From Eledone cirrhosa (taxonomy: Eukaryota), in the NCBI GenBank assembly GCA_964016885.1, contig OZ024744.1:113460001-113524000 (forward strand): DNA of 64,000 nt. Reading direction: 5' to 3'. Shown here in pieces: positions 24,600 to 34,898 of the stretch. Position numbers and translations under genes: made by a program. Position 1 is the stretch's first letter, and each line of letters begins with the position of its first letter. A model generated the notes under the pieces. That model was not told where the DNA came from. It was given only the letters and a program-made list of their open reading frames with translations, and ran no database searches.

Positions 24600-24890
24600 G
24601 TAATAAACAACATAAGATAATTATTTCATTTACCAGTGGTTTCTTGAAAGCAAACAAAATTTGCTTTCAGTCATCAGAATGAAAAAATCCTGATGTATTT
24701 ATTGACTGGATTTTAAAAAACAAAAATATAATCTATATGAAAGTGAGGCTGGAAAAGGAAGAAGGAAAGGAAAAAGAATAAGTATAAAGGTAGATAAATA
24801 CACATGCACGCACACACACACACACACACGCGCGCACATATACATACACACACATATATACATATACATATTTATACATATACATATATA
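24600..24890 (-). mobile_element. PLE-type pseudo-LTR, left arm of the outer inverted pair with 34765-34898
   Basis: 24727-24835 is the reverse complement of ~34800-34897; contains a hammerhead. Confidence 0.75.
24624..24684 (-). ncRNA. Hammerhead ribozyme, canonical core
   Basis: tttcatt CTGATGA c-tgaaagcaaa..tttgctttca-a GAAA cc act gg TA aatgaaa. Confidence 0.88.
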
Positions 24891-24891
24891 T

Positions 24892-25480
24892 ATGGTGGCT
24901 GCCAACTCGTTTTCGAGTATGGCCACTACTTTATATCCATGTAGGAGAACCCCTACAGATGCGCTGAACGAGTGTGACTTTTTTGTCCAGCCAGCGACTT
25001 GAAAACTCTGGTACAAACACTACACTTGTGACAATTATTGACACATAGTGCTGGGCCCATGGTACCATGTGACGACAAGTGCAGAGAGATCTCCAGATAT
25101 AAAGCAATGCCTGTGCCGTGAAGTTTTTATAGTGAGCAAAGGCACTGCACAAAGCCAGTCCCACTCTCTTAACCAAGATGTTATTTACCAAAAAGAAGAA
25201 CAAGTCAACATCATTGGATACCATCAGGGTTGCAGGTGTTTTCCTTCTCCCAGAATTCTGCCTTGACAAAGGCTAAGGGGTCATCTATCCCGGTGATTTT
25301 GGATGGCCATTGACTCTTAAGAGCTCCTTTGCCATTTGACAGGTTTTGTTTTTAGTCCTGCAGGATGTCCAGAGTCACCCTCCTCACCAAGAAACCTTGG
25401 TGGGATTGCCAGTTTAGTCGCCAACGACTCGACCATGAGACAGGTTGTACTGGGATACATGTTACCAGTAGCACCAACTG
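24892..25480 (-). mobile_element. Probable non-autonomous RTE-related repeat
   Basis: End shared with 50410-50455 (CTCGTT.TCGAGTATGGCCA); RTE-UTR-like motifs; no ORF. Confidence 0.35.
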
Positions 25481-25644
25481 GTGAATTAATCATTGTTTAA
25501 ATATGACCAGTTAATCATTTAAAAATTGAGATCAATATATTAAAAATTGTAAACAACTCCACTATCCGGGAACTTCCAACAGTAATGGTTGCATTTTTTA
25601 ATGGTATGTCAATATTTATTTATAAAACTGATCTATATTATATT

Positions 25645-25698
25645 TTGTCTGATGAAAGCACACCATAATTTAACTTGGTTTCCTGAAATATGTATAAT
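25645..25698 (+). ncRNA. Minimal hammerhead-like motif in a pLTR fragment (same family as 50251-50306)
   Basis: CTGATGA..GAAATATGTA, then AATAAA; 25685-25745 is the reverse complement of 50205-50264. Confidence 0.55.
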
Positions 25699-25779
25699 GA
25701 AATAAATATGGTTTTATAAATATAGTTTCCATTTGTTAATATCGTATCTCTCTCTCTCTCTATATATATATATATATAT

Positions 25780-26915
25780 ATATATACACACACATAATCC
25801 GACATATATACACACATACCTACACACACATACATACACACATATATACACGTATACATACGCACACACAAATATAGATATATGTACATACACCTACATA
25901 CGCACACACACAATTAATTATAAGAAAAAATATAATAATAAAAATAAAAACAATGGACGACCATATAGGCCGTCACATAAAATAAAAATAAAAATAAACG
26001 TAAAAATTATTATAAAGTTGACAGCGATACAGGAAAGGACACAAATAAATGAAAAAACAGACGTGGCAAGCAACACACACAATTACACATACACATACAT
26101 ACATACACACAAACACATATACACACACACATACATATATATATATATATATATACACATACATGCATGTGTGTAAAACTCATTCTTTGATGTAATCATT
26201 GAACCTTGTTTAACACTTAAAAAAAAAATATATATATATATATATATATATATATATATATATATATATGTATATATATATATATATATATACATATAAG
26301 AAAATACATAAATATTATGTATATATAAAAATAAAAAGGTGAAAGGGGTAAACAAATAGTTGGGATTACGACAAATAATAAATAAATAAATAAATAGATA
26401 AAGGTATAAATGTTTATAACTGATTTAGAGCACTCAACATATTCCTGGAGCAAGTAATCAATGAAAATAAACAATAAATCACTCTGTATGTAATTATGCA
26501 TATACATACACATATACACACACACACACACACACAACCATACAAATACACACATGTATACATATATAAACATACACATACACATATATATATATATATA
26601 TATATATATATATATACATATAGGAAAAAGTATGACCTCGACGGCAGAGCTCAAGCCGTTTCGACGGCTATTATATATATACACACACACATAAACATAT
26701 ACATATATATAAAAATACACATATACACACACACACATATATACAAAAAGTTACGTCACCACCTTAATAAAAAGACACACACACATATAAACACACACAC
26801 ACATATATATATACACAGACATACATACAGATATATATAAAATACAATTATACACACACATACATATACATACAGATATACATAATTATATATACATATA
26901 CATATACATATATAT
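25780..26915 (-). mobile_element. Microsatellite-rich PLE 3'UTR/pLTR, left arm (inverted copy of 31738-32920)
   Basis: Unique segments (25910-26090, 26170-26220, 26300-26500, 26620-26670) match the right arm in reverse complement. Confidence 0.85.
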
Positions 26916-26917
26916 TC

Positions 26918-32920: not shown

Positions 32921-33329
32921 TGTGTGTTTGTGTATTTGTGTGCATGTGTATATATGGATATGTGTATATATATGTGTGTATGTATGTATATGTACATATA
33001 TATATAACTTATATATACAACTTATATATATATATATAAGTTGAAATAAAATGAAAACGAAATTTCATTTCTCACTCTTAGTACGGCACTTACTTAAATG
33101 TAAGTATGTATGTATACGTACATACATATATGTATACAGACGTACAGTAGCATGCATATATATATATATATATACATACAGGTACACATACATATATGCA
33201 CGTATCAGTTGAGCGGACGCTTATTATAACGCCGCTTTGTTCGTTTGTAAACAAACTGAACAGCCTGAATTTATGCCATACGGTGTTAAGGCAACCACGT
33301 CACCTTTTTGTTCAACACTGACACAGGAA

Positions 33330-33370
33330 CGATGTACTAGTTTCAAGCTTGTTAGCTATCATCAGCACCG
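33330..33370 (-). ncRNA. Minimal hammerhead (palindromic stem III ACTAGT)
   Basis: cggtg CTGATGA t-agct aaca agct-t GAAACTAGTA catcg. Confidence 0.8.
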
Positions 33371-33856
33371 TATACCCTTCTGCCAGATAGTTGAACGTTC
33401 GAAAGTATATACTTTCCTTATGAAAATTAACGGCTGAGCAGCCTAATTTGCATATCGAGTGAGTTAAATCGGTCAGGCATACCGAAAACGATAAGTTGAA
33501 ATAAAATGAAAACGAAATTTCATTTCTCACTCTTAGTACGGCACTTACTTAAATGTAAGTATGTATGTATACGTATATACATATATGTATACAGACGTAC
33601 AGTAGCATGCATATATATATATATATATATATATATATATATATATATATATATATATATATATATATATATATATATATATATATATATATACATATAT
33701 ACATACAGGTACACATACATATATGCACGTATCAGTTTAGCGGACGCTTATTATAACGCCGCTTCGTTCGTTTGTAAACAAACTGAACAGCCTGAATTTA
33801 TGCCATACGGTGTTAAGGCAACCACGTCGCCTTTTTGTTCAACACTGACACAGGAA

Positions 33857-33897
33857 CGATGTACTAGTTTCAAGCTTGTTAGCTATCATCAGCACCG
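33857..33897 (-). ncRNA. Minimal hammerhead, copy 2
   Basis: Identical motif to 33330-33370. Confidence 0.8.
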
Positions 33898-34366
33898 TAT
33901 ACCCTTCTGCCAGATAGTTGTACGTTGGCATAAATTCAGGCTGTTCAGTTTGTTTACAAACGAACAAAGCGGCGTTATAATAAGCGTCCGCTAAACTGAT
34001 ACGTGCATATATGTATGTGTACCTGTATGTATATATATATATATATATATATATATATATATATATATATATATATATATATATATATATATATATATAT
34101 ATATATATATATATATATATATATATGCATGCTACTGTACGTCTGTATACATATATGTATATACGTATACATACATACTTACATTTAAGTAAGTGCCGTA
34201 CTAAGAGTGAGAAATGAAATTTCGTTTTCATTTTATTTCAACTTATCGTTTTCGGTATGCCTGACCGATTTAACTCACTCGATATGCAAATTAGGCTGCT
34301 CAGCCGTTAATTTTCATAAGGAAAGTATATACTTTCGAACGTTCAACTATCTGGCAGAAGGGTATA

Positions 34367-34407
34367 CGGTGCTGATGATAGCTAACAAGCTTGAAACTAG
34401 TACATCG
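34367..34407 (+). ncRNA. Minimal hammerhead, copy 3
   Basis: Identical motif on the + strand. Confidence 0.8.
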
Positions 34408-34764
34408 TTCCTGTGTCAGTGTTGAACAAAAAGGTGACGTGGTTGCCTTAACACCGTATGGCATAAATTCAGGCTGTTCAGTTTGTTTACAAACGAACAA
34501 AGCGACGTTATAATAAGCGGCGTCCGCTAAACTGATACGTTCATATATGTATGTGTACCTGTATGTATTTATGTATATATATATATATATATATATATAT
34601 ATATATATATATATATATATATATATATATACATGCTACTGTACGTCTGTATACATATATGTATGTACGTATACATACATACTTACATATATATATATAT
34701 ATATATATATATATATATATATATATATATATATATATATATATATATATATATATATATATAT

Positions 34765-34898
34765 ATATGTATATGTATATATGTGTGTTTATGTATATGT
34801 GTGTGTGTGTGTGTGCATGTGTGTTTATCTACCTTTATACTTATTCTTTTTCCTTTCCTTCTTCCTTTGCCAGCCTCACTTTCATATAGATTATATAT
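34765..34898 (+). repeat. Right arm of the outer inverted repeat (partner 24727-24890)
   Basis: TATCTACCTTTATACTTATTCTTTT..CCAGCCTCACTTTCATATAGATTATA. Confidence 0.85.

Follow-up and report, generated by a model that had tools for sequence, protein, structure and literature searches.

A nest of inverted PLE ends at TA runs in an Eledone cirrhosa contig

We find a real nest of PLE ends in about 10 kb of Eledone cirrhosa DNA, at positions 24600-34898 of the window, the 64-kb stretch of contig OZ024744.1 analysed here. It plainly illustrates what PLEs are already known to do. Published precedents exist for PLEs arranged head-to-head, for TA targeting, for capture of flanks and for microsatellites borne on TEs. 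The explanation we favour, to which we give about an even chance, is TA-targeted target-primed insertion with head-to-head doubling, in which a dead PLE and its TA-rich flank were probably copied as one, twice over. The geometry, a common stop codon, a common passenger fragment and TA anchoring are the observed parts of this explanation. All calls come from the sequence itself, by self-alignment, a motif scan, Pfam, Rfam, tblastn and other homology searches, and shuffles.

Three inverted pairs (E, A+D and F) lie head-to-head, with 5′ ends in and 3′ ends out. An earlier note on this DNA had described inverted elements nested within inverted elements, which overstates the depth: at most, E encloses A+D and A+D encloses the inserts B and C, which are each in a single orientation. 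A+D and F, the sole two inverted pairs inside E, turn out to lie side by side and not within each other. Inside E are also two elements absent from that description, G and H, and the large PLE adjoins at its left end the 3′ TC/TA run of H, not the microsatellite of the outer pair. The outer pair and these two elements are as follows.

24600..24893, minus strand: E-left, with an internal microsatellite; the pLTR-type 3′ end of a PLE-related element that bears a hammerhead
34729..34896, plus strand: E-right, inverted copy of E-left
24894..25550 (right limit approximate), minus strand: G, probably the 3′ UTR of a LINE of RTE type; strand and right boundary inferred
25573..25745 (left limit approximate), plus strand: H, the 3′-terminal piece of a further hammerhead element, with a TC/TA run at its end

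The outer pair proposed in the earlier note is confirmed, with limits of 24726-24893 against 34729-34896; its 73-bp unique core aligns with a score of 141, against a maximum of 46 among 200 shuffles, and its arms differ by 7 substitutions in 143. E-left has its 3′ end within the TA run at 24137-24594 and carries a type I hammerhead at 24677-24631 (stems of 7/11/3 bp; hammerhead-shaped MFE structure, z -1.83). At a short TA, E-right breaks off ahead of the hammerhead; the ~126 bp that it is missing relative to E-left include the hammerhead. A 33-bp E-like piece at 35019-35050 was considered as a possible continuation of E-right. We rejected the D or E arms as TIRs of a foldback DNA transposon, as the arm ends differ (E-right ends 126 bp early); no transposase is among the classified coding pieces inside the nest (RT and GIY-YIG, from the subset of open frames scanned). 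G ends in the TA run of E-left, and its left end matches the 3′ end of a LINE on the minus strand, at 50415-50444 (90%) and 50716-50775 (70%). H is 83% identical to 50377-50206; its own hammerhead core (25649-25688) is decayed and fails the motif scan, whereas that of the 50377-50206 copy passes.

For the outer pair only, it is possible, if doubtful, that E-left and E-right, members of one family, inserted independently of each other in a TA-rich region attractive to any element, and that the nesting inside them is a pile-up. The arms are 10 kb apart with only 73 bp of unique sequence in common, and two opposite-orientation copies of family J (24005-24137 and 52613-52745) are equally diverged, at 6/133 versus 7/143 for E (p=1); H likewise occurs in the window as opposite-orientation copies of the same family. 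Yet E is 3′-out like the true pairs, whereas the chance pairs of J and H are 3′-in, and both copies of E are 5′-truncated in the same microsatellite.

The large inverted pair consists of a coding part, A, and a long tail, D.

29040..30704, minus strand: A-left and core, 5′-truncated disabled Hydra-clade PLE (C-terminal half of the RT, CxCX5C linker, endonuclease, ~0.25-kb UTR)
30698..30790, plus strand: A-right 5′ piece, inverted copy of 30375-30283
30791..31409, plus strand: A-right, which repeats 29660-29076 in inverted orientation beyond a skip of ~620 nt
25761..26914, minus strand: D-left, the outer part of the left arm; a tail of 1.15 kb that is 45% microsatellite
31737..32908, plus strand: D-right, inverted copy of D-left, 47% microsatellite
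26624..26670, minus strand: TA-flanked passenger in D-left, the 3′ half of a hammerhead of family J
31937..31983, plus strand: passenger in D-right, the same hammerhead half, 96% identical to the D-left copy
32909..33035, no strand: TG/TA mosaic beyond D-right, read directly, that terminates in tiny inverted copies of the left end of F

The proposed arms of a large inverted PLE hold up, with limits refined to 25761-26914 plus 29040-29660 against 30791-31409 plus 31737-32908. The right arm, which had been thought to start at 30792, begins at 30698: an additional inverted RT piece of 93 bp comes first, then the skip of about 620 bp. The piece meets A-left 5′-to-5′ with imperfect microhomology of about 7 nt. 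Once the inserts are excised in silico, as the earlier note had suggested, the arms align with a seamless join and 44 substitutions in 1544 columns. Heterogeneity along the arms is not significant (p=0.097).

Judging by its motifs, protein homology and a by-eye match to Hydra-1_Obim, A is a Hydra-clade PLE. By tblastn it is 51-63% identical to Hydra-type proteins, and its RT and C-terminal GIY-YIG are collinear, residues 236-655 of its full-length relatives falling over 30702-29457 with frameshifts. The linker in the minus-strand translation is CSCRKPDEC (CxCX5C), a pattern present in 76/120 relatives, and the A-right endonuclease reads CSLC..EK..N..E..CPH, in which CxxC and CxH flank the conserved E and N; the GIY-YIG core has no cysteine pair, and CCHH is absent. 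Of the clade's N-terminal motifs RWK and DKT, the forms RW[KR] and DK[TS] occur in 54 (many of the 120 relatives being partial) and 87 of the 120, and A itself is 5′-truncated there. Both A arm ends adjoin TA. The motif scan finds no full hammerhead in the A UTR or in D, only a half motif, and the arms may stop before the natural end. Both arms carry the same TGA stop (30839 and 29615) where 64 of the 66 scorable homologues, out of 120, have Phe.

Each arm of A+D is interrupted by one insert.

26915..29038, plus strand: B, 5′-truncated Neptune/Nematis-type PLE with a CA/C-rich UTR and its 3′ end in TA
31410..31736, plus strand: C, piece from the interior of the reverse transcriptase of an APE-type LINE, in the same orientation as the right arm

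Alignment bears out that the left arm is split by a Neptune-like PLE, the GIY-YIG element at 26915-29038. From its endonuclease features, B is classed as a Neptune/Nematis-type PLE: the endonuclease frame is intact (26912-27430, stop at 27430), with a CSRPRCNTC linker (CX4CxxC) and C..C..H..H (CCHH), and it matches Pfam GIY-YIG at E=0.003, weaker than the curated cut-off. B is 41-48% identical to PLE proteins that have an RT followed by the endonuclease and is itself without an RT; at 28918-28941 it has a hammerhead core and stem II that fail the stem I criterion of the scan. The right arm is indeed split at its equivalent TA tract, by an RT fragment whose limits are corrected from 31400-31738 to 31410-31736. 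C matches Pfam RVT_1 (E=4e-7) and is 76% identical to an Octopus bimaculoides protein; it ends mid-ORF with no 3′ end of its own, while its relatives extend many residues further, and so lacks the mark of classical target-primed insertion. We rejected C as an old host for the other insertions: its family has no continuation elsewhere in the window, where other LINE matches are at 23-33%.

The earlier note had proposed that PLE 3′ UTRs carry TA tracts that serve as landing pads. Locally this is supported, with B in the TA run of the left arm and the ends of G and F in that of the outer pair, whereas the native-UTR origin of the tracts is doubtful. The D tails are 45-47% microsatellite, against 2.7-13.6% in six other PLE or ribozyme tails or units in the window, and because of this excess D is probably captured or read-through flank rather than a native UTR; the short, microsatellite-free UTR of the published Hydra-1_Obim points the same way. 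Among the other tails of the window D has no homologue beyond the J fragment and one 21-bp match. This passenger is a 47-bp fragment of the ribozyme of another PLE family, sits in a TA run of both tails, and in D-left is 88-90% identical to J copies at 23958-24050 and 52700-52741. As passenger and TA occur together in both tails, pad and passenger were copied together; with the common stop, this means that a dead copy and TA-desert DNA holding an earlier passenger were duplicated.

That B and C sit at the equivalent tract of both arms has a chance probability, with tracts matched by hand, of 0.08-0.15 for any tract and 0.01 for that tract. The coincidence counts against A+D as one unit, because a real A/D boundary would give it. 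It would follow if D had been a head-to-head hairpin in its own right, made from another element's tail, and the A pair had entered its central TA run, with B and C using the new TA boundaries (E enclosing D, and D enclosing A, B and C). The two inner ends of D form a perfect TA-centred palindrome, and the ~0.25 kb of A UTR up to the tract is close to the whole UTR length of Hydra-1_Obim. However, such a D should be at least as diverged as A, and across all columns the inner A is the more diverged (23/537 versus 24/1002). That difference (p=0.044) also counts against the explanation we favour, while its absence from non-microsatellite columns (p=0.26) counts for it. The A UTR up to that point is without a hammerhead, and a sibling locus at 42.3-45.4 kb repeats the layout, with a Hydra-type endonuclease piece (43720-44188) and a co-oriented, non-homologous 1-kb tail, duplicated head-to-head. 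A separate hairpin is thus unlikely in our judgement.

The palindrome reported at 33-34.7 kb within the outer pair was located at 33036-34691.

33036..33926, minus strand: F-left, a retrozyme-like repeat with hammerheads, in ~1.7 tandem units spaced 455 bp apart; hammerheads at 33365-33335 and 33892-33862
33927..34691, plus strand: F-right, ~1.4 units in the opposite orientation; hammerhead at 34372-34402; 3′ end in the TA run of E-right

Its tandem units and predicted type I hammerheads mark F as a non-LTR retrozyme-like repeat. Two of the three hammerheads are in direct tandem; the fold z-score alone is not significant. The motif scan, with criteria relaxed to admit minimal-stem forms, gives nine matches in the window, whereas each of 30 shuffles gives none. 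The motifs of B, H and M and the one at 41579 still fail. Folding energies of five hammerhead regions are not significant against shuffles. No hammerhead is among the 150 of 230 Rfam matches listed, nearly all of which pair microsatellite with miRNA models, plus one tRNA-like match, and six of eight frames have no Pfam match.

TA anchoring recurs across the window: 22 of 23 mapped 3′ ends adjoin a TA run, against 3.4% of background positions, a figure inflated by ends having been set by hand, partly at transitions from unique sequence to TA. In pairs E, F, J and K the arms end at differing internal points beside TA. TSDs are unreadable within TA.

The earlier note had also proposed ranking the pairs by arm divergence, with outer pairs older. 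By this measure F (3/417) comes out youngest (p=0.004 and 0.01), whereas E (7/143) and A+D (44/1544) are not separated (p=0.19). Arm divergence is a poor clock for such palindromes, because arms can derive from different source copies. In a LINE palindrome at 18.6-23.9 kb, whose copies overlap 5′-to-5′ by 4 nt, substitutions number 49/50/100 by codon position (p=6e-7); therefore two different source copies can pair up. These differences bear on whether the nest is an assembly artefact of fold-back reads or collapsed haplotypes. TA-rich palindromes are hard to assemble, and the window has a single gap (200 N at 55515-55714); yet the arms are 0.7-10% diverged, the inserts (B, C), deletions and microsatellite lengths are peculiar to single arms, and divergence varies between pairs and is codon-biased in one, making an artefact extremely improbable.

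The shared stop and passenger equally fit DNA-level duplication or gene conversion and so count against an RNA-only reading. Extrusion of a TA cruciform, a break and fold-back repair could have inverted an inserted A with its flank D with no RNA step; the common stop and passenger would follow trivially, the palindromes of the window include non-PLE sequence, and the 18 coding substitutions between the A arms show no codon-position bias, although so few sites carry little information. Against this, the neighbouring LINE palindrome is not a local copy, its arms differing mostly at third codon positions, and the right arm is discontinuous, joined at the truncated 5′ end of A. All pairs examined are also 5′-in and 3′-out, the PLE layout described in PMC3846280 and PMC8557442, to which fold-back would be blind. 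We consider DNA fold-back quite unlikely.

Under target-primed insertion, we infer an RNA intermediate, read-through, an order of events and any genome-scale feedback. Both cut strands at a TA run would probably each prime one cDNA, giving a head-to-head pair. The earliest component was probably E, a small hairpin of a hammerhead element with a TA run at its centre; into TA runs inside it, G and H and, later, the F pair would have landed. Elsewhere, a dead Hydra-clade PLE in TA-rich DNA already holding the J passenger was likely transcribed into its flank, and the read-through RNA, reverse-transcribed in trans from both strands and primed at an internal TA run, would have deposited D twice. 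B may then have entered the left-arm TA run, and C could be a later insertion or a template-switch capture during right-arm synthesis. Each round would supply the next with new TA landing sites. Both-strand nicking and extension and internal initiation have been described (PMC11167929), and the Hydra target is (TA)n (PMC8557442). Initiation without homology to the cut DNA (PMC11167929) and the attribution of head-to-head copies to self-priming on an antisense template (PMC3846280) both count against this explanation.

A broader and more tentative proposal, which we think rather doubtful, is that PLE machinery routinely primes two RNAs per cut TA run, using any TA-bearing read-through transcript (dead PLEs, retrozymes and even LINE RNAs originating from two different source copies). 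Each event would paste TA-desert DNA and its passengers twice, so that deserts self-amplify and fill with palindromes in TA-rich cephalopod-type genomes. If the feedback loop held genome-wide, it would account for the growth of TA deserts and dense palindromes in such genomes, and two-strand priming and antisense self-priming would be separable by arm codon bias and shared passengers, from sequence alone. Family consensus sequences will miss captured tails. In the titles and abstract openings listed from a mostly open-access literature, carried-TA feedback is not described for PLEs, and the word ‘nested’ is absent from the covered part of an octopus repeat paper (PMC13282606).

Hydra-1_Obim of Octopus bimaculoides (Craig et al. 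2021, PMC8557442) and A have in common an RT with C-terminal GIY-YIG, CxCX5C, no CCHH, terminal CxxC and CxH, and a (TA)n target, and an inverted 5′-truncated copy at the 5′ end is typical of PLEs (PMC8557442). Hydra-1_Obim is 2507 bp long, with a microsatellite-free UTR of ~200 nt ending in a hammerhead; unlike it, A is dead and without a full hammerhead, and in each arm a microsatellite mosaic of 1.15 kb comes after it. Penelope elements of Adineta vaga (Arkhipova et al. 2013, PMC3846280) likewise show head-to-head copies, microhomology at 5′ junctions, internal deletions and mobilisation in trans, and there, as in this nest, a PLE lies inside the simple-repeat segment of another. Pen1_Av captured a host spacer of 0.9-1.5 kb 3′ of its ORF, comparable to D; that spacer is unique DNA before the pLTR, whereas here TA-desert DNA with an earlier passenger is present in both arms and was reused as a target.

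Non-LTR retrozymes (PMC7229834; bioRxiv 10.64898/2026.07.22.740005), for which a PLE origin is argued, and F are both short non-coding tandem repeats with a type I hammerhead per unit; F differs in its unit of ~455-530 bp, internal TA runs and head-to-head arrangement, and the words ‘inverted’ and ‘microsatellite’ are absent from the main text of PMC7229834. In penaeid shrimp (PMC7878876), Penelope and RTE copies carry (AT)n, which travels and grows along with the copies; carried repeats as targets and head-to-head doubling are not described in the part covered. Twin or dual priming of L1 (PMC2837659) is similar in that cDNAs primed on the two strands at a single cut meet at an internal junction, and the resulting simple repeats have been suggested as future targets. 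L1 dual priming is a postulate there, whereas here both arms span the same 3′ region and one neighbouring LINE pair comes from two distinct source copies; if the two-RNA priming reading is true, the nest would provide genomic evidence for the dual priming postulated in L1.

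A nest of inverted elements does exist here, as the earlier note proposed, but it is at most three levels deep, because neither of two inserts, B and C, is an inverted pair, and the large pair A+D lies side by side with a smaller one, F. The outer inverted pair, E, also holds up (24726-24893 versus 34729-34896): the 73 bp of unique sequence at its core reach a score of 141, where the best of 200 shuffles reaches 46. Its left arm is 126 bp longer than its right, the extension holding a well-formed type I hammerhead. For E only, two independent insertions are a somewhat unlikely origin, to which copies of another hammerhead family, J, lend weight by being equally diverged elsewhere in the window. 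Just downstream of E-right, past ~120 bp of other sequence, lie 33 bp that match element E (35019-35050).

Main elements between the arms of E
29040-30704, minus: A, a 5'-truncated, dead Hydra-clade Penelope-like element (PLE)
30698-31409, plus: the other arm of A
25761-26914 and 31737-32908, two arms: D, the tail of A
26915-29038: B, a PLE interrupting the left arm
31410-31736: C, a LINE RT piece interrupting the right arm
33036-34691: F, tandem hammerhead units arranged as a head-to-head pair

The earlier note overlooked two further elements, namely G, a probable LINE 3' UTR ending in a TA run of E-left, and H, the 3' end of a hammerhead element with a homologue at 50.2-50.4 kb of the window. 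Also overlooked was how the right arm begins, with an extra 93-bp piece and then a 620-bp skip. C, an internal piece of a LINE RT (RVT_1) in the same orientation as the right arm, lacks a 3' end of its own, and its closest named relative is an Octopus bimaculoides protein (76%); C and G are presumably RTE-like, judging from motifs and matches within the window. F has one hammerhead per unit at a spacing of 455 bp and would fit a non-LTR retrozyme. Tiny inverted copies of its left 3' end, within the flanking TA run (33010-33040), are possibly products of abortive priming. A matches full-length RT+endonuclease proteins at 51-63%, is similar by eye to Hydra-1_Obim and combines a CxCX5C linker and terminal CxxC and CxH with the absence of CCHH, all described as Hydra-clade features (PMC8557442). 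B has an uninterrupted open frame, a hammerhead core close to its 3' end, and a CX4CxxC linker and CCHH that fit both the Neptune and Nematis clades; on these motifs it is a Neptune/Nematis-type PLE.

B and C break the two arms at one equivalent TA tract. With both excised, the arms join unbroken, as anticipated, with 44 substitutions in 1544 ungapped columns and no significant heterogeneity along their length (p=0.097). A and D do not differ significantly in divergence on non-microsatellite columns (p=0.26); on all columns the inner A is more diverged (p=0.044). The chance of two inserts in equivalent tracts is 0.08-0.15, and in this very tract 0.01, with tracts matched by hand. Given these divergence tests and chance figures, a contiguous A+D is favoured rather than proven, and D as a separate hairpin appears unlikely. 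Microsatellites make up 45-47% of D versus 2.7-13.6% in six other measured tails or units, and the Hydra-1_Obim UTR is described as plain and ~200 nt long (PMC8557442); D has the appearance of TA-desert DNA, not of a UTR that belongs to a family. Counting against this reading, tails of 1-1.6 kb also occur on two other Hydra-type copies in the window.

Both A arms carry a TGA where relatives have Phe (64 of 66 scorable, 120 relatives in all), so the duplicated copy was already dead. The two D tails share one 47-bp passenger, half of a family-J hammerhead, which is flanked by TA runs, so pad and passenger were copied together. J also occurs at 23.9-24.1 kb and 52.6-52.8 kb. The former is a small head-to-head pair of J ends (23949-24137) whose left arm breaks off at an internal TAT; the passenger ends there too, to the base. 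The latter adjoins a near-complete Hydra-type ORF (53399-55435, plus) in a PLE at 52613-55435, with an inverted family-J pLTR on its 5' side; the hammerhead there (52794-52711) has a U3-A8 core, not C3-G8, and an N gap follows (55515-55714).

A LINE palindrome at 18586-23950 is RTE-type, arranged 5'-in/3'-out with both ends in TA, and has a 4-nt overlap at its central 5'-5' junction; its left arm holds a ~190-bp insert (19941-20132). The arms are 10% apart, with 49, 50 and 100 substitutions at first, second and third codon positions (p=6e-7); this third-codon bias indicates that they come from two source copies. For the LINE palindrome only, this argues against local DNA fold-back and artefact. 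In the A arms the same test has 18 coding substitutions, too few to inform; a DNA-level fold-back of A+D seems quite improbable, and an artefact scarcely credible. Two sources also mean that arm divergence need not equal age. The earlier note expected outer pairs to be older, and by divergence F is indeed younger than A+D (p=0.01) and E (p=0.004), but E and A+D show no significant order (p=0.19).

Most likely, a PLE endonuclease would cut both strands of a TA run and each end would prime a cDNA, the truncated 5' ends of the two then joining through short overlaps. In published work (PMC11167929), a purified PLE protein made nicks on both strands and extended them, favoured AT-rich DNA and initiated within the RNA. 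For A+D, the template probably arose by read-through transcription of a dead copy within a TA desert and would be comparable to the captured 3' spacers of Pen1_Av (PMC3846280); we infer both the read-through and the RNA step. B would have inserted afterwards, and C by later insertion or template switch, an order that we also infer.

The window is animal DNA rich in repeats, likely from a cephalopod given the match of C, and self-BLAST reveals numerous inverted pairs throughout 18-50 kb, making the nest a single instance of a window-wide pattern. Perfect TA runs of at least 10 bases account for 8% of the nest and 13% of 16-64 kb but 0% of 1-16 kb; long TA runs are absent from the first 16 kb, and the largest TA desert is a degenerate 2.8-kb TA/TACA array (57840-60614). 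Mapped 3' ends adjoin TA in 22 of 23 cases versus a 3.4% background, a hand-mapped and partly circular count. The sole exception is the left end of 46262-47142, one of three additional pairs in which PLE or hammerhead ends lie head to head (with 47317-48172 and 48438-49470; hammerheads at 47473, 47956 and 49381). A motif scan detects nine hammerheads in the window and zero in 30 shuffles. At 42285-45437, a Hydra-type endonuclease fragment (66-68% to A) has a cut ORF joined at a 3-nt overlap to a 1-kb tail, unrelated to D and doubled head-to-head (1.8% apart). Another Hydra-type ORF (38310-41665) has an Asn/Arg-rich insert in its linker and an AT-rich 1.6-kb UTR with a hammerhead core at 41579, and ends in TA. 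The window also holds two more minus-strand LINE fragments (50680-52220 and 55746-57800), LINE-like coding sequence (3139-4095) and two copies of a tRNA-like repeat, probably a SINE (16616-16798 and 62930-63079; Rfam tRNA match at 16688-16745).

Much of this has precedent. A bias to microsatellites and inverted copies placed head to head are described as typical of PLEs (PMC8557442). Insertion of one PLE into another at simple repeats has been published, as has flank capture (PMC3846280), and so have shrimp TEs carrying (AT)n (PMC7878876); for L1, dual priming has been proposed, together with the idea that repeats serve as later targets (PMC2837659). Our literature search, mostly at title and abstract level, found no publication on the exact loop in which TA tracts carried by inserted elements become landing pads for further insertions. 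Three new lines of evidence, namely the stop and the passenger common to both arms and the LINE pair with two sources, open the ideas of feedback and dual priming to testing, and that testability raises the nest, whose kind is already known, above the routine.
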